This document shows, piece after piece, positions 689-49,736 of a stretch of DNA of 64,000 nt. Source of the DNA: Escherichia phage FEC14; sequence record MG383452; one strand, 5' to 3'. Position numbers and translations under genes: made by a program. Numbering within the stretch: position 1 is the stretch's first letter; the number at the start of each line of letters is the position of its first letter. Below the pieces are notes generated by a model. The model saw nothing but the letters and a program-made list of their open reading frames with translations, had not been told where the DNA came from and ran no database searches.

Positions 689-1305
689 TATCTGGTCCTC
701 TTGAGTTTCTCAATCGTGCGCTTATTCATGGCGATCACTCCTGGGTCGACCTTTGGGTTTATTGCCATGCCTTTGAAAGACACACATCGTTGAAGATATT
801 TAGCCTTCTTCACGACGTCGGCTGCATAAGAATTGGATTTCTGGTTACGATTGAACCCAGCATTGTAAGAGGAAAGGGATTTGCGGATGTTTTGGTTATG
901 ATATTCTAGCCAGAAATTCATTTCATCAAGGGCAGCATTGGCAGCATATTCTTGATTGACCAGTAATTTGATCGCCACGTTGGCGTAACACTTCTGTGTT
1001 TTGCATCCCTCCCGTTTCCCGACGGTTTGGACGCGATTTTGAAATGCCCCCATATTAGCCGATTTGAGGTTATTCCGCATGGATACAACATCTTCTCCAG
1101 CGCGGCTTTCCCTCCATGATATTGCGGCGAGAGTGAAACCAAGGTCTTGTTGTTTTCCCACGTGATAGGCTGTGGCCATGGTTGAAAGTTGTTGATCAGA
1201 AAACTCATAATCACATTGGGTGGTACTTTGGGAAGCGTGCACACTCCCGCTGGCAATGGTAAAGGTCACGGACAAGGCCATGGCCTTCAACGTTGTCATC
1301 GTCAT
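688..1305 (-). CDS. secreted lytic transglycosylase (SLT-domain, lysozyme-like)
   Basis: N-terminal signal peptide (MTMTTLKAMALSVTFTIASGSVHA); SLT catalytic motifs ES (ISWRESRAG), GAFQ and SYNAG read in the translation; AAGGAA RBS upstream. Confidence 0.6.
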   Translation of the reverse strand: MTMTTLKAMALSVTFTIASGSVHASQSTTQCDYEFSDQQLSTMATAYHVGKQQDLGFTLAAISWRESRAGEDVVSMRNNLKSANMGAFQNRVQTVGKREGCKTQKCYANVAIKLLVNQEYAANAALDEMNFWLEYHNQNIRKSLSSYNAGFNRNQKSNSYAADVVKKAKYLQRCVSFKGMAINPKVDPGVIAMNKRTIEKLKRTR

Positions 1306-1371
1306 GATGGCGTTCCTTATGTGTTTGTCGACTTGCAGCTCGCTGGAGCCTCCTGACAGGGTTAAAAGATA

Positions 1372-1397
1372 AAGGGCACTTGATATTTAGTGCCCTT
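1372..1397 (-). terminator. hairpin AAGGGCACT-loop-AGTGCCCTT followed by T-rich tract; loop contains a CTAAATA motif
   Basis: Inverted repeat 3' of the 1402..1686 ORF and about 80 nt 5' of the transglycosylase gene. Confidence 0.4.
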
Positions 1398-1401
1398 CAC
1401 C

Positions 1402-1686
1402 TTATTCGTAGATCAGATGGTATGATTCCTCGATGCATTCCAACCAACCGTAGACAAATTCCATAGGATCATCCCAAGCTGTATTGGAAGCAATAGTGAA
1501 ATCCCCGTCCAAGATTTGCATGTCAGTATATTTGTTGAAACCTAACACGGCATCAACGACTATTAAGCCACCTTGCTCTAGATAACGCTTTGGGGTCAAC
1601 GTCACCTGATAATGTTTGTTTCGCTGATTCCATAACTCGACAGCGATATCACAAGCAATCTGAATTTCATCTTTCTCTTCTGACAT
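1402..1686 (-). CDS. hypothetical protein (94 aa)
   Basis: Minus-strand ORF in co-oriented gene array; no motif recognised. Confidence 0.4.
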   Translation of the reverse strand: MSEEKDEIQIACDIAVELWNQRNKHYQVTLTPKRYLEQGGLIVVDAVLGFNKYTDMQILDGDFTIASNTAWDDPMEFVYGWLECIEESYHLIYE

Positions 1687-1996
1687 ATGTTTGTCTCAAA
1701 TATTCAGTAAAAGATTTACCCAACTTACGGAATAGTTTAATACGACCGATCACTTTGACATAAACATCTCCATGACATGGGCGCGGCTTACACCAGCATC
1801 CCAAGGTCTTTCCATCTAATTCAAGGAGTTCATCTTCGGTGATATCCCCTTCAATCAGGCGCACATACAAGTCGTCTTCAAACAACTCAATACAGTTTCC
1901 CCGCCCGTGGTCTTTGACCTCGAACGGGTTTCCCCATTTGCCAGGACGGCCAATGTAGACGTCGTGTGGTTCCTTCTTGAAGTGGACGACTTTCAT
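1667..1996 (-). CDS. conserved small phage protein with GNPF and C-x-C...C-H Cys/His motif (DUF4326-like, recalled from memory)
   Basis: Motifs GRPGKWGNPF and CWCKPRPCHGD read in translation. Confidence 0.4.
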   Translation of the reverse strand: MKVVHFKKEPHDVYIGRPGKWGNPFEVKDHGRGNCIELFEDDLYVRLIEGDITEDELLELDGKTLGCWCKPRPCHGDVYVKVIGRIKLFRKLGKSFTEYLRQTYVRRER

Positions 1997-2147
1997 ATGA
2001 TTGTATCAGCTAACCAGTATGCTGCCCAAACGCTTACACCACCGTACATAAAACCATAGATAATTTCTCCAGAGTTTATGTGGCGTAAACACATATTCAC
2101 AGAACAAATTGTGATTAAAATCAAAAATACCAAACAAATAGTAGCCA

Positions 2148-2462
2148 TCATGACATATCCTCATAATTAGATAGATTGATCAAGAAGGGCAGGTTCCGGT
2201 CATATATGAGGTCAATGGCCTTGCGGCTACCCACAGCCTCACATGTCCAATAACTGTAATTCCCTGCGATCTTCAATGCTAGTCGGACGACATGACGCCT
2301 CATATTGTACTGAGCCAACTGATATCGGGCGCGTGTCTTCTTGCGCCAGCATTGATTCTCCGCTTTGTACTTGTAGAGGATCATCAGGCGAACGGCTTTG
2401 TACAGGCGCTTTTCAGCGCCCTTGGATTTCTTTGATACACGAATCAGGCTACCCATGATCAA
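2148..2462 (-). CDS. hypothetical basic protein (104 aa)
   Basis: Minus-strand ORF abutting gp46 stop; Lys/Arg-rich; no motif recognised. Confidence 0.35.
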   Translation of the reverse strand: MIMGSLIRVSKKSKGAEKRLYKAVRLMILYKYKAENQCWRKKTRARYQLAQYNMRRHVVRLALKIAGNYSYWTCEAVGSRKAIDLIYDRNLPFLINLSNYEDMS

Positions 2463-4792
2463 TCCTTCTTAATCACTTCGGTCATGCCATTACGCAGACC
2501 ATAACGAATGTTATGTTGGAAATATTCTTGGAACTCCTGTTCACGCTGACTGATGACAAACAGATTGTTCCCACCAAATTTATGTTTCAGCATCTCAACC
2601 GATTCTTGTACGCCACGCTCGCTCATGTTCTCAAGGATTTCATCTAACACAAACAGGTTACATTGCACCGACGCCTTGAGGTTGGCCACGTCCCGTAGGG
2701 CTAATGTCACAGCCAGATTGAGTCGGCTGCGTTGTCCTGTAGACAGGGAGAATATGCTTTGCCCTTTACGACCTGCAGCGCTCATGGTGATTTCAAATGT
2801 ATCATCAACAGCAATATCCAAGAACATATTGAGTGCTTCAAGATACTCGTTTATTTTACTATTGAGGAAAGGCAAATACAGGCTGATAATTCGAGCCTTG
2901 GTCTGATCATCTTTTAGGAAGAACAGAAGATGGTTCAGGTCTTGCAATTTCTCATCCAACTCTACGCGCCGCGCATTCAGATCTTCCATTAATGCCGTGA
3001 TGCGAGCGATCTCTCCTTCCAGGGCTTCAGTTGGTGTCGGCTTAACCGCCAATTTACGCTCTAAATCGGCAATGGATGCCTCTAGAGGGGCACGGCGTGA
3101 TTTCAGGCTGGTGAGTTTATCAGCCGTGTCGTTGATACTCTTAGAGAGCTGCTCACGCGCTTGACGGATTGACGTCGTGATATCTTCGTAACGGGTGTCT
3201 ACGGCCTTGAGGACGTCGTTAATTTTGGACTGTTGTTCCCGCTGTAAAGATGTTTTCTCAACAGCAGCGACATCATAGAATCCTTGGATGTCGCGTTTTA
3301 ATGTAGCGATCGCCGATTCCGCTTCTCGGATTTCATTGCGCAAAGCATCCAGTTCTTTGTCAATAACCGAAATCTGAGAAGATAATTCTGAATCTCTGAC
3401 ATTGTAATTCTCAATCAGGGAATTCACTTCTTCTAGGGCTGTATCAACCTGAAGAATCTTGTCAGTCAGTTCACTGATTTGTGGATAATATTGACTTTCA
3501 ATGCGTGATTTGGTATCGTCCGACACTAATTGCGTACACGTAGGGCAAGTGCCCATATCGTGGAAACGTTTGATGGCAGATTCATGTCCTTCCATTTCTG
3601 TTACGAATTTGATACGGAAGTTCTCACCCTGCTGACGCCGCGCTAATGCTTTGTTCAGTTCATCCAGGTTAGCATTCCGTTGGCTGACCAGATCATTTTT
3701 ACGTTCCGCGACTACCGCCATTCTCTCCCGAATTTCTTGTAATGAACGTTCGCCATCAGACACCTCGATACGTTCATAGTCTTCAGCCTTGGTATCAGCA
3801 TCATCCTGAACTGCTTGGATTTTGGCCGCATACTCTTCATTGATGGAATCGATATCCACCTTCATTTCAGCGTTCAGGCGATTACGGACTTCTGATAATT
3901 CAGTTTCTAATTTAGAATCTTGGGCACGGAATTCCGTCAGTTCGTCTTGAGAAGCACCAATATCTGAATTCAAACTATTCAGACGTTCCTTCTCTTGGAC
4001 AAGGATATCAGCAGATTGTTGCTGGATCATCGCATTGGAATTATTGATCTGTTCCAACTGCGCTTGCTGGCCTTTTAAATTTACATCATGAAAGGCGTAA
4101 TCATTGGTGACCGTCGTGAGTTCATTCGTTACTGTCTTGATAGATGCTTTTACATCTTCATTCATCAGACTGAAGAACCCCAAATCCCAGATTGTCTCTA
4201 CCATAGCGCGACGGTCGGCAGTGTACATTTCCGTGAATGGGATGAACTTCTCTTTGCCCAGAACCAGGGAGTTCTCAAACATCTTCTGGTCCACGCCAAT
4301 CAGGTTCACAATATATTTGTTCATGTCGGCTTTGGCCGCATCATTCACGACCTTCTTCCACTCACCGTCTACCATCTGATAGACTTCTACGAAATCAGGT
4401 TTGATACCACGACGGACTTTCCATTCACTTCCTCGAGTGGAGAACTCAACTTCACCCACGCATTCCTTTTTGTTTTGGGAATTGACTAATCCGGCTTTCT
4501 TTTCTTTCTTGCTGTATGTGTCATTATACAGAACGAAGAACAGCAGCCAGACAAGCATGGTGGATTTACCAGCGCCATTGTCATCGGATGTAACCAAGGT
4601 TGCCGAATTGCGTTGGTAATCAATTTCCATGAATTCATTACCGATAGAACGGAAGTTTTTAGCGCGACCGCGATGGAAAGTCAGTTTGTGGGTAATTTCC
4701 CCACGAATTTCAAATGGTACTTCAACAGAAACAGGAGTGTCCGCTTCTTTCAACAGCGAACCAAATTTTGATAATAGGTCTACATTGTTCAT
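2459..4792 (-). CDS. 46: recombination endonuclease ATPase subunit gp46 (Rad50/SbcC-like)
   Basis: Walker A GAGKST near N-terminus, long central coiled-coil, C-terminal LFVLDEILE...NLFVISQREQEF matching T4 gp46 C-terminus (LILDEVFD...VFIISHKD); immediately downstream of the gp47 gene as in T4. Confidence 0.9.
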   Translation of the reverse strand: MNNVDLLSKFGSLLKEADTPVSVEVPFEIRGEITHKLTFHRGRAKNFRSIGNEFMEIDYQRNSATLVTSDDNGAGKSTMLVWLLFFVLYNDTYSKKEKKAGLVNSQNKKECVGEVEFSTRGSEWKVRRGIKPDFVEVYQMVDGEWKKVVNDAAKADMNKYIVNLIGVDQKMFENSLVLGKEKFIPFTEMYTADRRAMVETIWDLGFFSLMNEDVKASIKTVTNELTTVTNDYAFHDVNLKGQQAQLEQINNSNAMIQQQSADILVQEKERLNSLNSDIGASQDELTEFRAQDSKLETELSEVRNRLNAEMKVDIDSINEEYAAKIQAVQDDADTKAEDYERIEVSDGERSLQEIRERMAVVAERKNDLVSQRNANLDELNKALARRQQGENFRIKFVTEMEGHESAIKRFHDMGTCPTCTQLVSDDTKSRIESQYYPQISELTDKILQVDTALEEVNSLIENYNVRDSELSSQISVIDKELDALRNEIREAESAIATLKRDIQGFYDVAAVEKTSLQREQQSKINDVLKAVDTRYEDITTSIRQAREQLSKSINDTADKLTSLKSRRAPLEASIADLERKLAVKPTPTEALEGEIARITALMEDLNARRVELDEKLQDLNHLLFFLKDDQTKARIISLYLPFLNSKINEYLEALNMFLDIAVDDTFEITMSAAGRKGQSIFSLSTGQRSRLNLAVTLALRDVANLKASVQCNLFVLDEILENMSERGVQESVEMLKHKFGGNNLFVISQREQEFQEYFQHNIRYGLRNGMTEVIKKD

Positions 4793-35291: not shown

Positions 35292-35546
35292 TTATTTGAA
35301 GCGATCAGGAAGAGTGTCGTGAACCTCAGCGCTCAGCACCAGGAACTTGCCGTCTTTAGTAGGGAAGCAGTAGTCTTTCTTGATGTGGCGCATGTGTTCA
35401 GCCGTAGCCGCTACACAGTCGTTAGTCACGTCGGTCTTCTCACCTACCCACATACTGGTTTTGGTATTCAATGTACCTTGGAAGATAGTGCCCGTCAACG
35501 GGCTTGCTCCAATCTTTTTGATTCTCATAATTTCTCCCAAGTCCAT
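35292..35546 (-). CDS. hypothetical protein (84 aa)
   Basis: Minus-strand ORF. Confidence 0.4.
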   Translation of the reverse strand: MDLGEIMRIKKIGASPLTGTIFQGTLNTKTSMWVGEKTDVTNDCVAATAEHMRHIKKDYCFPTKDGKFLVLSAEVHDTLPDRFK

Positions 35547-35899
35547 GTTTGCGCCTTGGCTTTTCCGACTACTGGAACGTTACGGTGCATGTTTCTGAAG
35601 CTGCCTGTCTGATAAAAACAGATCCTGATGCGTTCATTTTCGGTATGCTGTGCCCAAACATGATGACCGTCTGGGTATGGGTCGTGACCAGCGCTACCTC
35701 CTTGTAGAGCTGTTTTGGTAACGACATAATGCCCTTGCATGTAACCGAAGAATCCCTCAGGGGTGATATAACCAGAGTCCGTTTGCCAATCTCCCTTGCA
35801 ATTAGAATACAAGAAATGCTTAGGCACCTGAGTTTCAATGGTCATTTCTTCTGTGAGAACGAACACATCGCCGACTTGAAGCAGTGGTAAATTGCTCAT
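35525..35899 (-). CDS. hypothetical protein (124 aa)
   Basis: Minus-strand ORF. Confidence 0.45.
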   Translation of the reverse strand: MSNLPLLQVGDVFVLTEEMTIETQVPKHFLYSNCKGDWQTDSGYITPEGFFGYMQGHYVVTKTALQGGSAGHDPYPDGHHVWAQHTENERIRICFYQTGSFRNMHRNVPVVGKAKAQTWTWEKL

Positions 35900-35910
35900 A
35901 TATTAATCTC

Positions 35911-36357
35911 TCACATGTTGCTGATTTTAAATAAAGTCGGAACATAGCACGGGTGTTGTTCACAGGACATGAAGGTATCAAAACGGGAACCTTTAACCAA
36001 GCCAGGCAGTTCGCCTTTCTTCAGGAGATCACGCACTAACTCTTGCGTGTCATACCAACTTTTTGCTGGATTGGATTGGGCTTCTGAAACTCGGATTTTC
36101 AACTCCCCAGTCGAATAATATTTACCGCTTTCCTTCATATAATAAAGGTTGACGGTCAGATATTGAGGAGAATCTATTTCTTCCCAACCGTTATCAACCA
36201 AGTCTTGGCGGTCATTGTCGTGACTTTGATAATCAATGTCACCGCTGGCCAATTTATAGCATTTGAAAATGCGAAAACCTTCGATAGGTGTATCGATGTC
36301 GCTACGAAAAAACTGGGAACGTCCTGGACTAATAAAGATATAATTTTGTTTAGACAT
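35911..36357 (-). CDS. hypothetical protein (148 aa)
   Basis: Minus-strand ORF. Confidence 0.5.
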   Translation of the reverse strand: MSKQNYIFISPGRSQFFRSDIDTPIEGFRIFKCYKLASGDIDYQSHDNDRQDLVDNGWEEIDSPQYLTVNLYYMKESGKYYSTGELKIRVSEAQSNPAKSWYDTQELVRDLLKKGELPGLVKGSRFDTFMSCEQHPCYVPTLFKISNM

Positions 36358-36432
36358 GATGTAGTTCTCTCTTCAAAGTGTTATGTTGTGACAGTTGGGT
36401 AATGATGGTTCATTACCCATTTATTGAAAACA

Positions 36433-36747
36433 TTAACAATTATCTTTAGACTCGTCTTCACAATTTGGGTGATAAAACGTTCCCAGTTTAGTATGGATGA
36501 CGTCCATGTGAGCATTGATTCTATCGATGAAATCGTCCTGCTCTCCTTGTATGTTAAGGATAGCACCAACAAGACCTGGATTGTGTGTTGATTTTTCTTC
36601 AGAATCAGATTCGGGAAATTCACCATCTAATTGTCGACGAATATTGATCACATTAGTGAGGATGTCAAAAAGACGTTCTTTTTGGGTGCGGGAATTAATG
36701 AGGATTTGTGACACGGATTGTTCAGAGGTAATATTTCGGGTTGTCAT
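36433..36747 (-). CDS. hypothetical protein (104 aa)
   Basis: Minus-strand ORF. Confidence 0.45.
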   Translation of the reverse strand: MTTRNITSEQSVSQILINSRTQKERLFDILTNVINIRRQLDGEFPESDSEEKSTHNPGLVGAILNIQGEQDDFIDRINAHMDVIHTKLGTFYHPNCEDESKDNC

Positions 36748-36834
36748 GACTGATACTCCTGTTGTAAGAAAGTTATATCGTACAACAGGAATTGTTATTG
36801 AACTATTCGCGTATTAAATCGTTACGATAAACAA

Positions 36835-37071
36835 TCACGTATTTTGAGAAACATATTTCAGATATGCGTATTTGTAACCTTCCTCGGTGAGTACACACAG
36901 ATGTGTATCTCGACCTTTTGGTACGTTTTTAACATCAACTCGTTTACAAAACCCCAGGGAGGCCAATTCGGCTTCTCCAGATTTAGCAGGTATTTCCCCA
37001 GCTTCACGAGGTCCAAACCAGAAAAGAACGAATAGAGTATCGACTGCACCGCCAGATAATTGATGAGACAT
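36835..37071 (-). CDS. small protein (78 aa from internal Met MSHQLSGG...)
   Basis: Strong AAAGGAGG RBS before the internal ATG; track N-terminal extension runs through the gp23 terminator. Confidence 0.45.
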   Translation of the reverse strand: MSHQLSGGAVDTLFVLFWFGPREAGEIPAKSGEAELASLGFCKRVDVKNVPKGRDTHLCVLTEEGYKYAYLKYVSQNT

Positions 37072-37126
37072 TTTAACCTCCTTTGATAAATGAGGCTTTA
37101 TTATCTTACATATCCCTATAAAGAAA

Positions 37127-40679: not shown

Positions 40680-42362
40680 TTAAATACTATCGTCTGTTGA
40701 ACCGGAGAATGGGATAGTCTCAGGTTTAAACTTCAACGGACTAACATCTGAACCGCTATAATTGCCAGTTTCATCTGCTTGAACCTTCGGATAGAGACCT
40801 TTCTTCTTCTCTTCCGCGATCTTCGTTTGTTGTTCTTTAACTTCTTCATCAGACATACGCAATACATTTCTCATGACGTAGTCTATGGAGAAAATGGAAC
40901 CAACAAATGGCTCAACAGTGTTCAATGAAGCCAGACGATCATTCAAGATAGCGTTTTCTTGTTGTTCACGAATGTAACTATCGGATGTGAATTCAAACTT
41001 TATAAACGGTTTGATCTTCTCATTCCAATCCTTTTCATCCGTAACGCCTTTCAAAATTAACTGGCGGCGCAAGAATTCCATGAAGAAATGGGAGTAACGG
41101 CGTCGTAACCCAGCACAGAACTTGCTGAAGCGCAGCTCTTCCTGTGTAATCTCCGCAAGGTTAGAACCCCCAATGTTAATAGATCCTTCCTCTTGGAGGC
41201 GGCTCTTAGGGATCATTAGAGCATCATAGAGTTTTTCACGGAAATAGTTCACGTGATCCATTTCGCCCAATTGATTCCCACCCCCAACAGTCGCAATCTC
41301 TGTAGCATTCTGACCTTCGCGGCGCGGCAACCAATAATCCTCTGCAATACCCATAAGATGGGCATTACCTGTTATCTTACCAGTGGTGCGGTCATATGCG
41401 TTGCGGTTTTTGAATTTACCCATCATCATGGTCATGTATTCTTCAGCAGATTTCTTACCGAGAGTACCGACGTCAAGATAGAATGCGCGTTTCTCAGGGG
41501 CGCGAGTGATGGCATAAATTACAGTCGCATCTTCAGTCGTAACCAGGTTGTTCAACGGACGGATAGCAGGATTTAAAAGGCCTGGGACAATACCATTGGC
41601 CAATGGCTCTTCACCACTATCGATGTAAACAATGCTTTCGTCATCGAATACGAGTTCTTGCTGTGAAGGCTGGAAGTTCTGGGAAGTACCAGATTGGCCA
41701 GTGAATTGGTTTCGATTATAATTCGGGTTGTAATAATACTTCAATGTTACAGATTCTATTGCTTCAATACCGCCTTCACGCATCGCCTTCTCAACGATAT
41801 AGACAGGACGAATGCAACGAGAATCAAGCATAACCAATTTCTTGATCCCGCCTTTTTTATTCGTGGGATCAACGATGACATGATATGCTTGTCGACCGTC
41901 AACATACCATTTCCGGATCTTCTGATATGCTGTATTGTCAAAGTCCATCAAGTGCATAACTTCTTTGAAGCATTCGGTGATAGATTCTTTAACAGTATCA
42001 GATATCCCTTCAACTTTGTCAAGGTTTACTGTCACTGGAGTTTCATCTTCCTCACAGGTGACAACGTCATTAACAATGATGTCCACAGCTTTGCGGATTT
42101 CTGGCTGCTGGGCCATGGACTGATATTCTTCCACAACTGTTTTAACGCTGAGAAGTTCACTCTCAACGCCAACATAGTTGTAGGTGTTTGCACCGCCCTG
42201 AAGGATTATAGAACCGTCTTGAGCATCGTCCAGAGCAACAACTGTCGCCTTGGTGAGCAACAATTCATCTTGTTTTTGGGCTAACTTATCGGTGTCGACT
42301 TTGGCATTGACTAAACCGCCGCCGCCAAACAAACCGAAGAACCCTGTGCCGTATCCAGCCAT
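40680..42362 (-). CDS. 20: portal vertex protein gp20
   Basis: 560 aa; position between tail tube gp19 and prohead core genes as in T4. Confidence 0.85.
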   Translation of the reverse strand: MAGYGTGFFGLFGGGGLVNAKVDTDKLAQKQDELLLTKATVVALDDAQDGSIILQGGANTYNYVGVESELLSVKTVVEEYQSMAQQPEIRKAVDIIVNDVVTCEEDETPVTVNLDKVEGISDTVKESITECFKEVMHLMDFDNTAYQKIRKWYVDGRQAYHVIVDPTNKKGGIKKLVMLDSRCIRPVYIVEKAMREGGIEAIESVTLKYYYNPNYNRNQFTGQSGTSQNFQPSQQELVFDDESIVYIDSGEEPLANGIVPGLLNPAIRPLNNLVTTEDATVIYAITRAPEKRAFYLDVGTLGKKSAEEYMTMMMGKFKNRNAYDRTTGKITGNAHLMGIAEDYWLPRREGQNATEIATVGGGNQLGEMDHVNYFREKLYDALMIPKSRLQEEGSINIGGSNLAEITQEELRFSKFCAGLRRRYSHFFMEFLRRQLILKGVTDEKDWNEKIKPFIKFEFTSDSYIREQQENAILNDRLASLNTVEPFVGSIFSIDYVMRNVLRMSDEEVKEQQTKIAEEKKKGLYPKVQADETGNYSGSDVSPLKFKPETIPFSGSTDDSI

Positions 42363-42396
42363 GATCTAAGTCCTCAACATTTTCTTGTAATTAGTG

Positions 42397-42429: not shown

Positions 42430-42963
42430 TTACAATGACTTGTCAGAAACGGCTTGGAAATAACGCAAGTCGACAGTGAACTGTGTGTAAGAGTCCATTG
42501 CCGACATATCGAGTTCCAATTGGCCGAGGTTTTGAGGCCAGCCACCCTGCAAAGTCCATGTCTTAGTCACGTTGTCATTCGCGTCCAGAAGTTCCATGAT
42601 GATATCACGGAAATAATCATCTGGATTCGCGCTGGCGCGGTTGTTTTCACTACCGTTGATGAATTGCTGCCACACTTCAAAAGCATTGTATGGAGCGTTG
42701 TTCACCACGTTAATGAACGTCACAGGAAGCGCTTCGAAACGACGATCCCCTGGGAACGGAAGTTCACGACCACCCCAGGGCACCAGAATTTCGCCCAGCT
42801 GACCTGTTGGGGTGTTGGTGGTTACAGCCAGCAAGGACACGTCACGAATTGTGTCGGAACCAGCAACAAAAGAAGGAAAGTTTACAGTCACACGCCAGCG
42901 GTGTTGGCGTTGTACGCCGCCCCCTCGTGACATGGCTGCGCGAAACTCATTGACTGTCGCCAT
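42430..42963 (-). CDS. 19: tail tube protein gp19
   Basis: 177 aa, position between sheath and portal. Confidence 0.75.
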   Translation of the reverse strand: MATVNEFRAAMSRGGGVQRQHRWRVTVNFPSFVAGSDTIRDVSLLAVTTNTPTGQLGEILVPWGGRELPFPGDRRFEALPVTFINVVNNAPYNAFEVWQQFINGSENNRASANPDDYFRDIIMELLDANDNVTKTWTLQGGWPQNLGQLELDMSAMDSYTQFTVDLRYFQAVSDKSL

Positions 42964-42993
42964 TTTTATATCTCCAAATAAGAGTACACAATT

Positions 42994-43452
42994 CTAATTA
43001 GTCGTCAATCTTTTAATCTTCATGGAAGAAAGATCGAAACCATGATGAACATTACTTGAAACAGGTTCGATTTCACACAATTCCCAACGGGGATCTATGA
43101 GAGAAACAAGACCAATGTGTTCACCTGTGGATGTCAATTTTGCTGCAGTTTTACCCAGCATATGACTTCCATCATTACCGCCTTTATTCATGTTGTAACC
43201 CATCTCATAAGAATTATATTGAGCGATGAGTTGCTTCTCTAATTCCCATTTATGGACTTCATCGGTCTGAGCAATTACAACGAAAGTAAATCCAGATGTT
43301 CCATACTTACGCATAGCATCATACAATTCACTTTGGACTCCATGATGAAAAGCATTCGCAAAATGCTGATCATATCTTCGTTGTGGGTCATTGGTCACAC
43401 CGATGTAGACCTTTCCATTAGTTATCGTTTCAATTTTGTATGCGTATATCAT
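42994..43452 (-). CDS. GIY-YIG homing endonuclease (free-standing)
   Basis: N-terminal IYAYKIE...GKVYIGVT...RRYDQH is a canonical GIY-YIG motif; inserted between gp18 and gp19. Confidence 0.8.
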   Translation of the reverse strand: MIYAYKIETITNGKVYIGVTNDPQRRYDQHFANAFHHGVQSELYDAMRKYGTSGFTFVVIAQTDEVHKWELEKQLIAQYNSYEMGYNMNKGGNDGSHMLGKTAAKLTSTGEHIGLVSLIDPRWELCEIEPVSSNVHHGFDLSSMKIKRLTTN

Positions 43453-43482
43453 TCAATAACTCAAATCAATAAGACAAAGGAA

Positions 43483-43502
43483 AACCCCGCCGAAGCGGGG
43501 TT
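43483..43502 (-). terminator. intrinsic terminator AACCCCGCCGAAGCGGGGTT 3' of gp18
   Basis: Same 20-mer hairpin as after gp23; followed by T-rich tract on the minus strand. Confidence 0.6.
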
Positions 43503-43510
43503 GGTCATTT

Positions 43511-45406
43511 TTATGAAGCAGCAACGATGCCGCCACCGGATTCGATTTCGCTGAACTCCATATCTGGTCGAACTGCAGCAAAATCCAAATAAATCCAGTT
43601 AATGCTGTACTCAGGCTTCAACCAAATACCAGCAACCATTTGGTTTGCCGCAATGATATCAGCAGTGTTGTTGTCTTCATCACATTTGACTTTACCATCG
43701 TAAATCGCGCCCATATTTGCCAGCTGGCGAATATATGGACGAACCGCATTGCTGAACAGACCACGTGTAAACGCGTCATTGTTCTCACCAAGATAGTATT
43801 TGGCGATTGCGGCGATGTTCTGCTCAGCCATGATGAACAGGCCACGAACGTTGATACGGTCAAACGCCGACGGGCGGGTCAGGCCAGTTTTGTCACCATA
43901 CAGGACGATGCCTTCATTGGAGAAGGTTACGATGCTGTTGATCTGGTTGCGGTACAACACAGCACGTTCATCAGAAGATGCAGACCACGCCATTCGATTA
44001 TAGTTGTTGTATTTACCACGGTTGTGGAACGCCGGAGATTTGTAGATACCCGCGATTTCAATGCTTCGCGCCCAAACACCTGCGGTGCCACCACAAGCCG
44101 GAATCCAACGCATTTTGTCGTTGTACTTGTCGTACACATATGCCCAGTTATCATCCATGAAGAAATAAGAAGAGTCGCGAACAAGGCTTTCACGCCAAGC
44201 AACGACATCATCCATTTCACGACCACGGTTGCCAACAACCGTATCACGGAGCGGGGATACGAAAGATACCGTATCTTTTCGCTCAGTAGATAAGTCGATC
44301 AATGCTTGTTGCTCAATCAGTTCTTCACAGTACGCAAATACTGGCTTCGCATCATATGCTTCAGCATTGTTCAAGACTTGGATAGCTGCCACGCGGTTGA
44401 TGTTATAATCGTCTACGCCGCCTTCTAATTCAACAACACCTGCGGCCAGAGCGGTAGCGAAGGTGTACACCCAATTTGATGTATCATTGATGACATCTTT
44501 GAAGTACGCATTCGCGCCATCGGACTTTTTGGAACCCTGTGTGTTCTGCATGAGTTCGTATTTTTCGATAATAGAACCAGATGCGCCAACAGTGGTAATC
44601 ACGGCGGTTGCAGTCAGCCCCTTATCATCTGGAACAATAGCAGTAACTGTCTGGGGACCAATAGCTTTATGGGTCACGATGACAGTGTTGGACTTCACGA
44701 CAACAGAAGAATAAACACTTGTCAGGGAAGTTAGTGCTGTACCGATTTTGGTTGCCAAATCGGCTGGAGTATCAGTATCCAGATATGCGATATCTTCACC
44801 TGCCACACTGATGGTGCCAGCAGCAGTAGCCGTACCAGAAACGGAGATACGGTCAACCTGACCGACCGCGCCAGCAGAGTCGGTAATGCGACCAACTTTG
44901 TCTACGACAACTACATGGAATTCACCAGACTGAGGTGCGTATGCAAAGTTATTACGGAATTCCCAAGTTGAGAATCCAGCAGCATCACAAACATTGATAG
45001 CAATATCATTACCCAGGGAACCTGGATAACGACCAGTCCAAGTGATGGACGCCGAAGGACTTGCTGTTTCAAAATCCAGTTTGTTTTTGATCGCAATCGC
45101 TGTCTGACCTTTGGTAACAGAGTTCTTGGCCAGAGGACCAACAACACGGGTCACCCATGCCATAGAGCTGTAAGACAAAAAGTCCGCGATTACGAGAAAA
45201 TCGGTCGCAGTACTGTCGTTGGGTTTGAAGAATTTCTTCACCAAACCTGTCTCACCACCAGTCACCAGCACTGGAAGTTCAACTTCACCCCATTGAAATT
45301 TTCCGACGGTCGCGCCCTGAACAACAACGGACGGGGACGTCTGAAGCGTGGCATCACGCTCAGTCCACTGAACGGACGGCGCAACGCTGAAGCTTTGAGT
45401 TGCCAT
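43511..45406 (-). CDS. 18: tail sheath protein gp18
   Basis: GKFQWG motif near N-terminus matches T4 gp18; true start taken as internal ATG (MATQSF) with GAAGGAA RBS, since the track start at 45439 appears to be a non-ATG codon. Confidence 0.9.
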   Translation of the reverse strand: MATQSFSVAPSVQWTERDATLQTSPSVVVQGATVGKFQWGEVELPVLVTGGETGLVKKFFKPNDSTATDFLVIADFLSYSSMAWVTRVVGPLAKNSVTKGQTAIAIKNKLDFETASPSASITWTGRYPGSLGNDIAINVCDAAGFSTWEFRNNFAYAPQSGEFHVVVVDKVGRITDSAGAVGQVDRISVSGTATAAGTISVAGEDIAYLDTDTPADLATKIGTALTSLTSVYSSVVVKSNTVIVTHKAIGPQTVTAIVPDDKGLTATAVITTVGASGSIIEKYELMQNTQGSKKSDGANAYFKDVINDTSNWVYTFATALAAGVVELEGGVDDYNINRVAAIQVLNNAEAYDAKPVFAYCEELIEQQALIDLSTERKDTVSFVSPLRDTVVGNRGREMDDVVAWRESLVRDSSYFFMDDNWAYVYDKYNDKMRWIPACGGTAGVWARSIEIAGIYKSPAFHNRGKYNNYNRMAWSASSDERAVLYRNQINSIVTFSNEGIVLYGDKTGLTRPSAFDRINVRGLFIMAEQNIAAIAKYYLGENNDAFTRGLFSNAVRPYIRQLANMGAIYDGKVKCDEDNNTADIIAANQMVAGIWLKPEYSINWIYLDFAAVRPDMEFSEIESGGGIVAAS

Positions 45407-45448
45407 AATATCATTCCTTCTCGGTAGAGTTTCGCTCAATTTGAAAGA

Positions 45449-45455
45449 TATTTAG
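45449..45455 (-). promoter_or_regulatory. candidate late promoter CTAAATA upstream of gp18
   Basis: Motif about 40 nt upstream of the proposed gp18 ATG, just after the gp17 stop. Confidence 0.45.
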
Positions 45456-45458
45456 TGA

Positions 45459-47669
45459 TCAATTCTTAAACCACTCATCCATGGTCATCCCTGACATTTC
45501 GTTGAAAACTTGAATACCCCCGAAACCAGGCAAATGCTCAGTTTCGGATGGGGTGTCTCCAACGACTAAACCACCAAATGGGAATACCTGCTGAGATTCA
45601 GTTGAAGACATTCGGTTTCTCATGTCCTGAGAAATACTTGTAGATGTCAAATCACTGAACCATTCTTGTTTAACTGCCCAAGAATATAAGACCAACGGCA
45701 TGACACAGTCATCGTGACAACCGTCATCGGCTTCATACCGAGCGCCTTTGAACACAAATGTACTGAGTTCATCTATCGTGTCCTGGTCTTCTATCACCAA
45801 CATTTCTTTCTCAATGAGCGCTTTCAGGTTAGCACAACCGATAGATCGGACTTTTCTGTTGGTATTGATACCAGGTTCCGGTTTACGTCCACCAATCCGT
45901 TTCCCCGTCCCTTTGTTATCTGTTGATGTGAATATGATTTCTGGATATTCTATCTCTTGATAAAGAATTGTAATAACCTGACCGCCGACGTCGTTGTTTG
46001 TTTCAACAAGGACAGGGCATTCCCCGTATTCGGTGCACATATCAGCTATCGTGTATGCATACATCATAGGAGGTATCGTGTTATTCCTGTACTTGGCTGC
46101 TATAACATGCGGATATTCAGTTATATCCAGAATTGTTAAGACGGAATAATCTCCTTCCACCCCCTTCCCAGTGTCCGCAATCCCAAAGTAGAGACGTTGT
46201 GGGTCGTATTCCTTATAAATCTTGGTGAATTCATTAGGTTCCCGATACAACTTGGACGTCATTTTATCTAAGCATTTGGCCGGAATCAATGAACCCACGG
46301 AACCACGGAACTTAATGCCAAATTCTTGATCGAAACGAGCATCCCCCAGACGGGCACGTTGTTTGGTTTCCCAATCTGGATCTTTGGTATATGCCGGAAC
46401 CTTATACCATGGGACTTCAGTTAGGTGGAAGTCGTTGTATTGTGGATGGCGCGGATCTGCTTTGGTGACAATATCATAGAACAACCCTCGCTGGCCTTTC
46501 GGAGTACTTGTCAAAATACAGCGTGATGTATCGGCAGATGCAATGGCTGGGAAAGTTGATTCCCAAAATTCAAAGTCGTTTTCGATAAACGCGACTTCGT
46601 CAACGTACAAGAGCGATACAGAACGACCACGGATGGAGTCCGAAGACGTGGCATAAGCGTATATCTTAGAACCATTCTCAAACTCTATCAGGGTAGAACC
46701 AAACTTCTCACAACCCTGCTGAAGGAAGAATGGGAGGTCCTGATACGCCTTCCTGATACGGTCAAGAATTTCAATCGCTTGTTTCTCTTTGTTTGCCAGT
46801 ACCGCGATTTCTTTGTCTGAGTGGAACATCGCATACCAAAGAAGAAACGCAGCCACGACCGTGGTATTATGGCTGAGGAACCCATTCGTGTAATAACGTT
46901 GATCGCTGGACTTGACTTGCAAGTCATACATGTGGTGGTACTCACCAGTCTCCCAGATCTCAGAGATGAATTCTATTCCCTCCTGGGTCATTATGGCATC
47001 TCCGGCCTCCATGTCTTTAGCAAATACTTCGCGCCCATATTCATTGAAGAACATGTGCTCATCTGCGACATGAATTGTGCGTCCGGTTTCAGTCCTGACA
47101 ACGTATTCAGCGTATTCTTTCGTTTTATGAGCGGCAATAACCGGAACCCAGCCAGTGTCGGACTCAACAAAATATCGTTTCCCGAAACGGCTGTCTACAA
47201 ACTTATTGTGGTTGCCAATGGTATTCAGTGGCACAGCATGGTTCGGTCCTTCGAAGCGCTTGTGAAGCTCTTCTATGGTGAGATGCAACTCTTGTTGACT
47301 GATTGTATCATAGACATAAACAAGAGTATCACCACGGACGCATTTACCGGACTGACGAGCCTGGACGACCGCATTGAATCGATAGTCCTGAAAGTCGTGG
47401 AACAACTGCTTCTGATAATCATGCATATCGAAAAGGATAAAGCCCTTATCGATCGTGGTTATCTTGTAATAGTTGGCGGCGAAGTAGTGTGCATCCATAG
47501 AACATTCAACGAATTCGTCTTCTTGTTCATCTGTCAGCATTAACTCGACTCGAGGAGCACGCACAGAAGGTTTGCGCATGAACGTTTGGTCCATACGCAA
47601 TTTCACATCGTCTATTTTGAACCCCGTTTTAATTGGGGCATATTCTATATCACGCTTCTGATACGCCAT
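45459..47669 (-). CDS. 17: large terminase subunit gp17, interrupted by an in-frame mini-intein
   Basis: N-extein ends QARQSGK and C-extein begins TTVVAAFLL, together reconstituting Walker A (T4: SRQLGKTTVVAIFL); 736 aa total. Confidence 0.9.
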   Translation of the reverse strand: MAYQKRDIEYAPIKTGFKIDDVKLRMDQTFMRKPSVRAPRVELMLTDEQEDEFVECSMDAHYFAANYYKITTIDKGFILFDMHDYQKQLFHDFQDYRFNAVVQARQSGKCVRGDTLVYVYDTISQQELHLTIEELHKRFEGPNHAVPLNTIGNHNKFVDSRFGKRYFVESDTGWVPVIAAHKTKEYAEYVVRTETGRTIHVADEHMFFNEYGREVFAKDMEAGDAIMTQEGIEFISEIWETGEYHHMYDLQVKSSDQRYYTNGFLSHNTTVVAAFLLWYAMFHSDKEIAVLANKEKQAIEILDRIRKAYQDLPFFLQQGCEKFGSTLIEFENGSKIYAYATSSDSIRGRSVSLLYVDEVAFIENDFEFWESTFPAIASADTSRCILTSTPKGQRGLFYDIVTKADPRHPQYNDFHLTEVPWYKVPAYTKDPDWETKQRARLGDARFDQEFGIKFRGSVGSLIPAKCLDKMTSKLYREPNEFTKIYKEYDPQRLYFGIADTGKGVEGDYSVLTILDITEYPHVIAAKYRNNTIPPMMYAYTIADMCTEYGECPVLVETNNDVGGQVITILYQEIEYPEIIFTSTDNKGTGKRIGGRKPEPGINTNRKVRSIGCANLKALIEKEMLVIEDQDTIDELSTFVFKGARYEADDGCHDDCVMPLVLYSWAVKQEWFSDLTSTSISQDMRNRMSSTESQQVFPFGGLVVGDTPSETEHLPGFGGIQVFNEMSGMTMDEWFKN
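46866..47342 (-). mobile_element. mini-intein (about 159 aa) inserted in the Walker A P-loop of gp17
   Basis: Insert starts with Cys directly after GK, ends with His-Asn, followed by Thr; no homing-endonuclease domain (too short). Confidence 0.7.
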
Positions 47670-49675: not shown

Positions 49676-49698
49676 GACTTTACCCTCAATTTTGAAGG

Positions 49699-49705
49699 TA
49701 TTTAG
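49699..49705 (-). promoter_or_regulatory. candidate late promoter CTAAATA upstream of gp14-gp17 operon
   Basis: Motif about 25 nt upstream of gp14 ATG. Confidence 0.45.
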
Positions 49706-49736
49706 TCAATCATTAATTCTTTTGAGGAATTGATAA

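Follow-up and report, generated by a model that had tools for sequence, protein, structure and literature searches.

A short, probably homing-type GIY-YIG endonuclease gene between the tail sheath and tail tube genes of Escherichia phage FEC14

Introduction

I-TevI, encoded by the td intron of phage T4, comprises 245 aa and carries a Zn finger and a minor-groove helix (NUMOD3) in its C-terminal DNA-binding region. A Zn finger in the linker and a C-terminal HTH have been described for this enzyme (PMC10448857), and the characterised GIY-YIG homing endonucleases are presented as being built from two domains, of which the C-terminal one binds DNA (PMC3664794). In mixed infections, the spread of Seg proteins takes flanking markers along, which is referred to as 'intronless homing' (PMC2330249, PMC2988022, PMC1564403).

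The PhiSH19 genome paper lists a GIY-YIG endonuclease gene (PMC3220722), annotated in 2011 at 107,416-107,874c, with a product of 152 aa and in the same sheath-tube position as the ORF of Escherichia phage FEC14 analysed here. CBA120 orf195 ('putative homing endonuclease SegD'), its counterpart in Vi01 and Det7 gene 6 represent the same gene (phrog_5123). The annotated copies in Kuttervirus share 95-100% identity and equal length with the FEC14 protein, nothing of substance differs between them, and no experiment is reported in any of these records. We take the label SegD to be the depositor's wording and do not rely on it; apart from the domain that the two have in common, none of our observations supports orthology to T4 SegD. 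As PhiSH19, CBA120 and many further records annotate the same gene, it is already known, with a GIY-YIG or homing endonuclease annotation in >150 published genomes. Our finding therefore adds nothing to the existing annotation, and the gene is a routine item in Kuttervirus genome records. New detail is provided on the insertion slot as a hotspot, a conversion tract in phage Mutine, the shortened acidic form of the protein, its purifying selection and its low divergence within Kuttervirus.

Results

The analysed window is a stretch of 64,000 nt (MG383452) from a Kuttervirus (Ackermannviridae, ViI/CBA120-like); ViI-like phages contain hypermodified thymidine in their DNA. The free-standing GIY-YIG endonuclease gene is located at 42994..43452 on the minus strand and comprises 152 codons and a TAG stop codon, with an ATG start. 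Coordinates and length agree exactly with a preliminary description made from the sequence, which was silent on the strand. The locus is 99.5% identical to that of Salmonella phage FrontPhageNews, whose 'putative GIY-YIG endonuclease' shows 100% protein identity to the ORF product. A profile search with the 152-aa protein returned Pfam GIY-YIG (PF01541) with E=2.5e-11 and 44.1 bits (curated cut-off 22.6 bits), in which aa 2-87 align to positions 2-78 of the 78-position profile, and phrog_5123, 'homing endonuclease with GIY-YIG motif', with E=8.1e-94 (aa 1-152 aligned to all 152 profile positions). Judged by these scores, the GIY-YIG match lies far above chance level. The motifs quoted in the preliminary description, IYAYKIE (aa 2-8), GKVYIGVT (aa 13-20) and RRYDQH (aa 25-30), were all recovered, and its domain assignment was borne out by both profile matches and by a complete active site.

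The catalytic GIY-YIG domain (43174..43452, minus strand; aa 1-93) was delimited from the alignment with I-TevI, the family alignments and an AF2 model. Alignment to 1LN0/1MK0 revealed that Y5, Y16, R26, H30, E72 and N87 pair with I-TevI Y6, Y17, R27, H31, E75 and N90, and these six residues are invariant in family alignments of 9 and 64 sequences, down to 54% identity; the loss of catalytic residues, named beforehand as an observation that would speak against a GIY-YIG enzyme, was not seen. The AF2 model, built from the 64-sequence alignment, reached a mean pLDDT of 84, with values >90 over aa 1-90, while an earlier prediction from 9 close homologs was unusable (mean pLDDT 58.8) and was dropped. 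Foldseek returned the I-TevI catalytic domain (1MK0/1LN0) as the top PDB matches to the model (E=1e-5; target-normalised TM-score 0.82-0.84, rmsd 1.7-1.9 Å), followed by UvrC N-terminal domains. The model suggests that the protein has an I-TevI-like GIY-YIG alpha/beta fold. At an identity of only about 26%, the likeness to I-TevI extends to the catalytic fold, all catalytic residues and the modular arrangement of nuclease domain and linker; unlike I-TevI, the FEC14 protein is free-standing, acidic and devoid of the Zn finger, NUMOD3 helix and HTH. With T4 Seg proteins, e.g. SegB, it shares the free-standing, intergenic location, flanked by conserved genes that follow a T4-like order. The GC content of the gene amounts to 0.38 vs 0.46-0.52 in its flanks, which is read as foreign composition, and tblastn detected no paralogs in the rest of the 64,000-nt window.

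Beyond the catalytic domain, the protein carries a 55-aa extension that begins with a linker (aa 94-98) disordered in the model. It is followed by a single 'DPRW' module (43057..43155, minus strand; aa 100-132, GKTAAKLTSTGEHIGLVSLIDPRWELCEIEPVS), a unit of ~33 aa that recurs as tandem arrays of 3-7 copies elsewhere among predicted phage nucleases, where the arrays stand behind SegE-like GIY-YIG and HNH nucleases (consensus G.xAAxxxxTGExLGxVxxxDPRWxTGEI). The module was modelled as three short beta strands (pLDDT about 85), and aa 96-132 show a dN/dS of 0.06 against the ortholog of a Klebsiella phage. No Pfam family was matched by the repeat, comparison with solved structures gave nothing but a chance 14-residue match to amine dehydrogenase, and a literature search on NUMOD2 found nothing. 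The module is not basic; that it may bind DNA is suggested by its association with other nucleases. The protein ends in a short basic tail (42997..43056, minus strand; aa 133-152, net charge +2, low model confidence) with a dN/dS of 0.11, in which V135, F139 and R148 are invariant in the 9-sequence family alignment. The Pfam search of the 152-aa protein yielded no NUMOD or HTH match.

Long relatives of 230-245 aa (Madison/P0010 type; allotria, pertopsoe, S118 orf152) reside in the same slot and on the same strand as the FEC14 gene, and the 3' end of each of these ORFs enters the same conserved motif, ACTAATTAGAATTGTGTA, as does that of the 152-aa gene. Over aa 4-131/137, a stretch that takes in the DPRW module, they are 59% (P0010) or 42-44% (allotria type) identical to the 152-aa protein. 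They carry ~90 extra residues with a NUMOD3-like GxxNxxAK and an HTH-like LGL..S.L..YI..G signature, and the 152-aa protein stops short of this region. While the long relatives are basic (pI 8.5-9.2), as are the repeat-array nucleases (8.6-10.0), the FEC14 protein has a pI of 6.4 and its orthologs of 5.4-5.8, which is unusual for an enzyme that locates a specific DNA site alone. Thus, the 152-aa form appears to be a C-terminally shortened, acidic derivative of a ~230-aa ancestor that lost the NUMOD3/HTH-like region. Since the NUMOD3/HTH-like DNA-binding region is missing from this form, 'active homing endonuclease' denotes here a presumed activity, which we infer from the sequence.

On the coding strand, the tail sheath gene (gp18-like, 631 aa as annotated in relatives; 43511..45406, minus strand; phrog_23, E=1.9e-113) lies upstream and the tail tube gene (gp19-like, 177 aa; 42430..42963, minus strand; phrog_45, E=6.1e-57) downstream of the endonuclease gene, in line with the intergenic gp18-gp19 position proposed for a free-standing gene. 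The gp18 terminator said to flank the ORF was likewise located directly upstream on the coding strand (43473..43502, minus strand; stem AACCCCGC/GCGGGGTT, loop TTCG, T-rich tail). Its hairpin (43483-43502) consists of 8 pairs, 6 of them G-C, and lies 3' of the sheath stop codon. The record of phage Matapan annotates a terminator at the equivalent place; in Ag3, allotria and pertopsoe, the hairpin has another stem (TGCCCTC/GAGGGCA) and the same TTCG loop. The 23-nt leader from the terminator tail to the ATG (43453..43475, minus strand) offers just a weak GAG Shine-Dalgarno remnant, and the Matapan annotators marked a 3-nt RBS at the same leader position. Neither ACTAAATA nor ACTAATTA, both late-promoter-like motifs, was found in this leader. 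Occlusion of the start codon by long-range RNA pairing was considered as well and rejected, as the signal is too weak (z = -2.1).

The conserved motif ACTAATTAGAATTGTGTA (42985..43002, minus strand) is located 32 nt upstream of the tube start, includes the endonuclease stop codon and delimits the insert on its downstream side. The motif is present in a single copy in the 64,000-nt window, is kept in Ag3, where the slot is empty, and in allotria, pertopsoe and LIMEstone1, and likely serves as the tube gene's late promoter. Of the related motif ACTAAATA, the window contains 7 copies, always on the minus strand, vs 1.74 expected, and the inspected copies lie in gaps upstream of structural genes; ACTAATTA was found upstream of the portal gene, too. 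The ACTAAATA copy upstream of the sheath gene (45449..45456, minus strand) is probably a late promoter whose read-through transcripts would reach the endonuclease gene. The T4-type late promoter TATAAATA was matched 2 times vs 2.19 expected; as this count is no higher than expected, it is not used here. A role of CTAATTAGAATTGTGTA as a repeated element or duplicated target site was ruled out by its single occurrence in the window.

Comparison with relatives that lack the insert, as suggested in the preliminary description, showed an empty slot in Shigella phage Ag3, with 78 bp from sheath to tube. Salmonella phages allotria and pertopsoe carry a 232/235-aa GIY-YIG homing endonuclease gene (HEG) in the slot, Klebsiella phage Madison a 230-aa GIY-YIG form, and S118 a tandem pair of a 245-aa and a 152-aa HEG. 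In LIMEstone1 and Mutine, the slot is filled by a Hef-like HEG of 591-596 aa on the opposite strand; this gene, F-LimVIII in the Dickeya phage LIMEstone1, belongs to an unrelated family, and the LIMEstone paper names the tail tube gene as F-LimVIII target or downstream gene (PMC3296691). LIMEstone1 also retains a remnant of the 230-aa form, reduced to 'MIT' and the last 36 codons, which seems to represent a degeneration stage of the same element. These slot contents indicate that the sheath-tube slot is a hotspot for HEGs. HEG DNA was detected in 153 Salmonella and Escherichia records vs 191 records with the tube gene, in 44/45 Klebsiella and 11/11 Serratia records, and in 0/19 Dickeya and 0/6 Shigella records. 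About 20% of Kuttervirus records are without the 152-aa HEG and have the slot filled by other HEGs. By these counts, the 152-aa HEG appears to be the usual slot resident in Kuttervirus and to occur in Taipeivirus and Miltonvirus, too.

The Hef-like HEG of Mutine is accompanied by ~240 nt of tube sequence of the LIMEstone type (87-95% identity to LIMEstone1), and the rest of the Mutine tube and sheath genes is 98-100% identical to the FEC14 stretch. This pattern represents a clear co-conversion tract at the slot, left by an HEG other than the GIY-YIG type, and suggests that homing does take place there. In S118-type genomes, a full-length HEG is inserted directly beside the short form, which is evidently no bar to invaders.

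Against the Klebsiella phage ortholog (82% aa identity), the 152-aa HEG shows a dN/dS of 0.086, with 0.087 for the catalytic domain, 0.077 for aa 96-150 and a range of 0.06-0.11 across the protein parts. These values (about 0.09) indicate that the short HEG is under purifying selection, and its ORF is intact in 11/11 sampled Kuttervirus genomes as well as in the Klebsiella and Serratia phage orthologs. At aa 9-11, the FEC14 copy reads TIT in place of MVC, a minor allele, and minor variants are likewise present at residues 132, 136 and 141.

Among 10 Kuttervirus genomes, the HEG has a mean synonymous difference per site (pS) of 0.069, compared with 0.223 in sheath codons 1-571 and 0.162 in tube codons 41-177, and in the Matapan-S118 pair the HEG dS is 0.011 vs 0.27 (tube) and 0.44 (sheath). 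All Kuttervirus HEG copies are at least 96.3% identical to that of FEC14, while flank pieces of equal length show tails of 80-95%. Within Kuttervirus, the HEG is several-fold less diverged than most flanking genes, which suggests recent spread or homogenisation. The last 60 sheath codons are hyper-variable at synonymous sites among Kuttervirus (pS 0.414 vs 0.223 in the remainder), whereas tube codons 1-40 have a pS of 0.012 vs 0.162 for codons 41-177. Base-by-base alignment revealed that the first ~120 nt of the tube gene are near-invariant in the sampled Kuttervirus with either the 152-aa or the 232/235-aa HEG. As this invariant tube 5' end is common to carriers of another GIY-YIG HEG, the low-diversity tract cannot be credited to the 152-aa HEG alone. 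No fixed nucleotide differences between HEG-plus and HEG-minus genomes were found in the tube 5' end (17 sequences), and one such column in the sheath 3' end is unconvincing as a target or immunity mark with 17 sequences. Between genera, pS is about 0.6 for the HEG and its flanks alike, and this tracking of the flanks would fit long vertical residence as well as homing.

A further selfish element had been proposed in the terminase. Indeed, the large terminase gene (45459-47669) contains a 159-aa mini-intein (46866..47342, minus strand; TerL aa 110-268) that splits the Walker A P-loop (GK/CVRGD...FLSHN/TTVVA, slashes marking the junctions) and matches solved inteins, namely gp41-1 and an engineered consensus intein. 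The extein downstream aligns to T4 gp17 'GKTTVVAIFLAHF', and the Pfam Intein_splicing match is weak (27.3 bits, under the 35.8 cut-off). Of the claim of two selfish elements in the structural block, the presence of both HEG and intein stands; the total of two was examined just at the sites of two extra GIY-YIG genes of FrontPhageNews, the nearest relative. Sharing of these genes had been assumed from the close kinship and was ruled out, both being absent from FEC14 at the equivalent sites.

Discussion

We consider it probable (about 0.6) that the ORF represents a free-standing gene for a GIY-YIG homing endonuclease of the I-TevI/Seg kind, whose product is composed of a catalytic domain, a linker, one DPRW module and a basic tail and was shortened from a ~230-aa ancestor. 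This reading is favoured by the domain and family matches, the fold and the invariant active site, by the polymorphic slot and patchy distribution, by purifying selection and low diversity within Kuttervirus, and by the Mutine tract, the foreign GC content and the LIMEstone1 remnant. The missing NUMOD3/HTH-like region, the acidic pI and the non-basic DPRW module count against it, as do the tracking of the flanks between genera, the neighbouring insertion in S118 and the shared invariant tube end. Activity or site-specific cleavage of the 152-aa protein is not reported in the literature searched.

Without a late promoter of its own and with a weak RBS, the gene would be expressed late and at a low level via transcripts that run past the sheath terminator. 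During co-infection, the DNA of a relative would then be cut by the enzyme near the slot, and the low-diversity tract may point to the tube side for the cut. Recombinational repair of the break, with the HEG-carrying genome as donor, would copy the gene and some sheath and tube flank into the recipient. We infer each of these steps, namely read-through expression, cutting and recombinational repair.

That the protein has remained an active minimal site-specific nuclease, with the lone DPRW beta module as its DNA-recognition element and as a member of an undescribed class of nuclease-associated modular DNA-binding repeats, is a tentative suggestion that we regard as rather doubtful. A domesticated nuclease, which no longer recognises a specific homing site and is kept for its use to the phage, constitutes a serious if unlikely alternative. 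Such a protein may nick or cut competitor or host DNA, stimulate recombination around the tail genes or partner another DNA-binding protein. The loss of the basic NUMOD3/HTH-like C-terminal region and the acidic character of the remaining protein (pI 5.4-6.4) would agree with domestication, as would the strong purifying selection over long divergence and near-fixation in three genera, which is not expected of a purely selfish element after fixation. The flank-like divergence between genera, suggesting vertical descent, and the ability of a second HEG to insert next to the short form point the same way. However, synonymous diversity within Kuttervirus lies several-fold under that of most flanks, as spread by gene conversion predicts, and about 20% of Kuttervirus records manage without the gene, so that it is dispensable. 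In addition, the DPRW module, which is common to other nucleases, and the basic tail could still provide site recognition.

Decay of a longer HEG into an inactive leftover that is heading for deletion might be suspected from the length of the protein, which falls short of the 230-245-aa relatives, from the unmistakable deletion remnant of the long form in LIMEstone1 and from Ag3, which lost the whole element or never had one. With a dN/dS of 0.06-0.11 in all parts of the protein, six catalytic residues invariant down to 54% identity and ORFs that are intact in each of the 11 Kuttervirus genomes sampled as well as in the orthologs from Klebsiella and Serratia phages, a pseudogene is very improbable and close to refuted. 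Even less credible, to the point of being practically negligible, is a conserved tail structural or assembly protein that merely resembles a nuclease. Its location between sheath and tube and its occurrence in most Kuttervirus, Taipeivirus and Miltonvirus genomes would suit such a role, but the gene is missing in Ag3, in the Dickeya phages and in about 20% of the Kuttervirus records, whose slot is vacant or occupied by unrelated nuclease genes; the conservation in all relatives that had been named beforehand as the mark of a structural protein is not found. The I-TevI-like fold with its complete active site, the low GC content, the weak RBS and the absence of an own promoter motif likewise speak against a structural protein. 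Both the pseudogene and the structural-protein readings were therefore rejected.

Conclusions

The gene is an ordinary one, save for a form that is unusually short and yet maintained by selection. If this short acidic form is active as a homing endonuclease, it would show how small a GIY-YIG homing enzyme can be and define a small DNA-binding repeat; with the DPRW module as its recognition element, the protein would then be the smallest known GIY-YIG homing endonuclease, equipped with a new, programmable-looking repeat. The locus could serve as a compact natural system for the homing cycle, as it offers a 78-bp slot between two essential tail genes whose states in sequenced relatives include the empty slot, a full-length HEG, a shortened HEG under selection, two HEGs in tandem, an unrelated HEG that took over the slot and left a visible co-conversion tract, and a deletion remnant. 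In genomic work for phage therapy, slots of this kind account for local mosaicism within structural genes that are conserved elsewhere.

Gene neighbourhood and prior annotation

The open reading frame at 42994..43452 (minus strand; ATG start, 152 codons, TAG stop) can be assigned with near certainty to a GIY-YIG nuclease gene derived from a homing endonuclease gene (HEG). Along the coding strand, the gene order reads large terminase (TerL, 45459-47669), tail sheath (43511-45406), terminator hairpin (43483-43502), endonuclease gene, tail tube (42430-42963) and portal (40680-42362), all on the minus strand, and the location, flanks and sheath terminator proposed in the preliminary description were recovered. 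The GIY-YIG motifs quoted there are present in the ORF, and the domain was confirmed by Pfam PF01541 (E=2.5e-11; 44.1 bits against a cut-off of 22.6), while the whole 152-position profile of phrog_5123, 'homing endonuclease with GIY-YIG motif', was matched with E=8.1e-94. The GC content of the gene is 0.38 and that of its flanks 0.46-0.52. For the neighbouring sheath gene, the mechanical ORF begins at TTG 45439, 11 codons upstream of ATG 45406 (window 45407-45439); the latter, preceded by GAAGGAA and used in all annotated relatives, is likely the true start (631 aa).

The finding of a GIY-YIG endonuclease is correct and already known, as the PhiSH19 genome paper (2011) lists a 152-aa GIY-YIG endonuclease in the tail tube/tail sheath interval (PMC3220722). 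The protein is 100% identical to the 'putative GIY-YIG endonuclease' of Salmonella phage FrontPhageNews and 98% identical to CBA120 orf195 ('putative homing endonuclease SegD'), Det7 gene 6, PhiSH19 and others; the name 'SegD' was given by the depositor of the CBA120 record, and no weight should be placed on it. The 3.2-kb region shares 99.5% identity with FrontPhageNews and 98-99% with CBA120, SFP10, moki and many other Kuttervirus (Ackermannviridae) genomes. A literature search for experimental work on the gene found none. RefSeq gives lengths of 110 aa in SS9 (L011 695-1027) and 134 aa in phage 38 (L013 695-1099); the full 152-codon ORF is intact in both, and the short annotations are start-site inconsistencies, not truncations. 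OR844942.1 ('Enterococcus phage Efm 3-10') and one 'Pseudomonas' record show ~99% identity to the Kuttervirus region and probably reflect a wrong host label or phage contamination of the isolates.

Active site, predicted fold and C-terminal repeat

Alignment of the catalytic domains paired Y5, Y16, R26, H30, E72 and N87 with I-TevI Y6, Y17, R27, H31, E75 and N90, respectively. None of the six residues varies among family members as distant as 54% identity, nor among the wider relatives in an alignment of 64 sequences; a loss of catalytic residues on careful alignment was not seen. An AlphaFold2 model built from the 64-sequence alignment (mean pLDDT 84; catalytic domain above 90) has the I-TevI catalytic domain as its top match among solved structures (target-normalised TM-score 0.82-0.84, rmsd 1.7-1.9 A). 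In the model, aa 94-98 are disordered, three short beta strands lie within aa 100-130 (pLDDT about 85), and pLDDT is low over the final 20 residues. The domain, the active site, the modelled fold and the occurrence of an empty site are those expected of the HEG class. Where that class has a C-terminal DNA-binding domain, the protein has a linker and a 55-aa extension, in which no NUMOD or HTH match was detected.

An exhaustive profile search identified aa ~100-132 (GKTAAKLTSTGEHIGLVSLIDPRWELCEIEPVS) as a single copy of a repeat, termed DPRW, that occurs in 3-7 tandem copies in other predicted phage nucleases. Such arrays follow SegE-like GIY-YIG domains in the proteins P0012, P0016, P0023 and P0028, and an HNH domain in P0019 (phrog_12434). 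In these metagenomic nucleases, and also in P0032, P0056 and P0108, the 3-7 tandem 'DPRW...TGEI' repeats of ~33-40 aa look like a modular array. Comparison of the repeat with Pfam and solved structures yielded neither a family nor a relative. Because it is attached to two unrelated nuclease folds, the data suggest a modular targeting domain. The repeat is not basic; the 152-aa family is acidic (pI 5.4-6.4), while longer relatives have a pI of 8.5-9.2 and repeat-array nucleases one of 8.6-10.0.

The nearest longer relatives, of 230-245 aa, occupy the same sheath-tube slot. P0010 and the protein of Klebsiella phage Madison show 59% identity across aa 4-131, and those of allotria, pertopsoe and S118 orf152 show 42-44% identity to the 152-aa protein. 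According to the alignment, the longer proteins carry ~90 extra residues, which include a GxxNxxAK stretch resembling NUMOD3 and a segment of HTH-like character (HTH matches weak), whereas the 152-aa protein ends ~20 residues past the DPRW module and is a shortened form.

Contents of the sheath-tube slot

Comparison with relatives lacking the insert, as the preliminary description had proposed, revealed an empty slot in Shigella phage Ag3, where 78 bp separate sheath and tube. On one side the insert is bordered by the terminator tail, on the other by the conserved motif ACTAATTAGAATTGTGTA; the empty site, too, retains this motif. Other genomes hold a 232/235-aa GIY-YIG gene (allotria, pertopsoe), a 245-aa gene in tandem with the 152-aa gene (S118 and several others), or, on the opposite strand, an unrelated Hef-like HEG of 591-596 aa (LIMEstone1, Mutine). 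LIMEstone1 additionally contains a deletion remnant of the 230-aa form, with ATG-ATT-ACC joined to the last 36 codons. This remnant, which carries no annotation, spans 39 codons (MIT and the final 36; L002 ~1175-1291, minus strand) between F-LimVIII and the tube gene and is 92% identical to the 230-aa P0010-type HEG; ahead of it, the hairpin sequence of the sheath terminator occurs a second time. The slot of Mutine also holds a 120-aa hypothetical gene and a second terminator.

In a DNA search whose record counts include some GenBank/RefSeq duplicates, the 152-aa gene was found in 153 Salmonella and Escherichia phage records, against 191 with the tube gene, in 44/45 Klebsiella and 11/11 Serratia records, and in 0/19 Dickeya and 0/6 Shigella records. 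With these absences, it is not conserved in all relatives as a structural protein. Judged from these gene contents, the slot is a hotspot for HEGs. This agrees with what Barth et al. describe for other phages, in which HEGs replace one another at a single position and lie at the borders of exchanged segments (PMC10448857).

Expression signals

The motif ACTAAATA occurs seven times in the window, always on the minus strand (1384, 39448, 40666, 45449, 49699, 56215 and 63672; 1.74 expected; 0/100 shuffles reach 7), with variants at 42388 and 42995. The four sites checked (39448, 40666, 45449, 49699) lie in gaps between structural genes, the copies inspected precede structural genes, among them scaffold and sheath, and the variant ACTAATTA is found 26-32 nt before the start of the portal and tube genes. 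We infer that these motifs are late promoters and regard ACTAAATA as a candidate core of such promoters in Ackermannviridae. The window shows no enrichment of the T4 late consensus TATAAATA. The endonuclease stop codon falls within the presumed tube promoter. As no late-promoter-like motif (ACTAAATA/ACTAATTA) was found for the endonuclease gene, which directly follows the sheath terminator and has a Shine-Dalgarno sequence reduced to GAG, it is likely expressed at a low level from transcripts reading through the terminator. Such expression is common for free-standing HEGs.

Selection, diversity and probable gene conversion

Compared with the ortholog of Klebsiella phage 0507-KN2-1 (82% aa identity), dN/dS is 0.086 overall and 0.087, 0.061 and 0.109 for aa 1-95, 96-132 and 133-150, respectively; near-saturated synonymous sites make these ratios rough, yet they lie clearly well below 1. 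The gene is under purifying selection, and its ORF is intact in 11/11 sampled Kuttervirus genomes.

Across ten Kuttervirus genomes, the mean synonymous difference per site (pS) is 0.223 for sheath codons 1-571, 0.414 for the last 60 sheath codons, 0.069 for the endonuclease gene, 0.012 for tube codons 1-40 and 0.162 for tube codons 41-177. All Kuttervirus copies of the endonuclease gene are at least 96.3% identical to that in the window, whereas the identity tails of equal-length sheath and tube pieces reach down to 80-95%. A trough over the endonuclease gene and tube start beside a peak at the sheath end is what repeated gene conversion at the slot would produce. However, the trough is not attributable to the 152-aa gene alone, because phages with the 232/235-aa HEG share the invariant 120 nt at the start of the tube gene. 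Between genera, the endonuclease gene and its flanks show similar synonymous divergence, which is in keeping with vertical residence over a long time. Over the last ~60 sheath codons (window 43511-43690, minus strand), pS is about 2x the gene average (maximum 0.685) and as high within Kuttervirus as between genera. This pattern suggests that foreign sequence was brought in repeatedly along with HEG exchanges, or that the variation reflects escape at a target site.

Over most of its sheath gene, and typically also from about nucleotide 300 of the tube gene onward, Mutine shares 98-100% identity with the window. Its Hef-like HEG is accompanied by about 240 nt of LIMEstone-like tube 5' sequence (87-95% to LIMEstone1, 78-83% to the window), and the last ~180 nt of its sheath are also diverged. 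Positions 1125-4030 of the Mutine locus (L009) bear a co-conversion footprint, a direct example for another HEG.

Terminase intein and further exchangeable sites

The second selfish element of the preliminary description, a terminase intein, proved credible: a 159-aa mini-intein (46866-47342, minus strand) within TerL splits the Walker A loop (ARQSGK/C...SHN/TTVVAAF). The insert matches solved inteins in its C-terminal part, and the extein downstream of it can be aligned with T4 gp17; an endonuclease domain was not evident in the insert. With 736 and 733 aa, the terminases of Ag3 and LIMEstone1 are of nearly equal length, so the intein may be a fixed feature of the whole family. A tblastn search of the window found no further GIY-YIG gene of the 152-aa type, and the two additional GIY-YIG genes of FrontPhageNews, its nearest relative, are absent.

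Between two neck genes, FrontPhageNews has a plus-strand gene for a 309-aa 'GIY-YIG nuclease family protein'; the corresponding site in the window (~49695-49715) is empty. An ACTAAATA motif (49699-49706) lies at this junction, which marks a second HEG slot beside a presumed late promoter. Directly downstream of the major capsid gene, 1.6 kb of the window (35529-37120; ORFs of 106, 104, 148 and 124 aa, function unknown) is unrelated to the 1.2-kb counterpart in FrontPhageNews, which encodes a 214-aa GIY-YIG HEG and a small nucleotide-binding protein. This segment is likely another replaceable cassette of the structural block.

Proposed mode of action

That the gene encodes a structural protein is the least probable reading, and a decaying pseudogene is also very improbable; both are contradicted by the selection data and the presence/absence pattern. 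With dN/dS well below 1 and the ORF intact in all sampled Kuttervirus genomes, we conclude that the gene is not a pseudogene. In the main rival, the protein, now shortened and acidic, has ceased to home and is retained for a different function as a nuclease; we regard this as possible but distinctly less probable than homing.

As a whole, the data are best explained, with a probability of roughly 0.6, by a free-standing homing endonuclease of the Seg/I-TevI type, likened in its mode of working to the T4 Seg proteins and I-TevI. Such an enzyme would cut the DNA of co-infecting relatives near the slot, and recombinational repair would then copy the endonuclease gene in, together with some flanking sheath and tube sequence. 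Only the DPRW repeat, seen as a module associated with nucleases, and the idea that a single copy is enough are possibly new.
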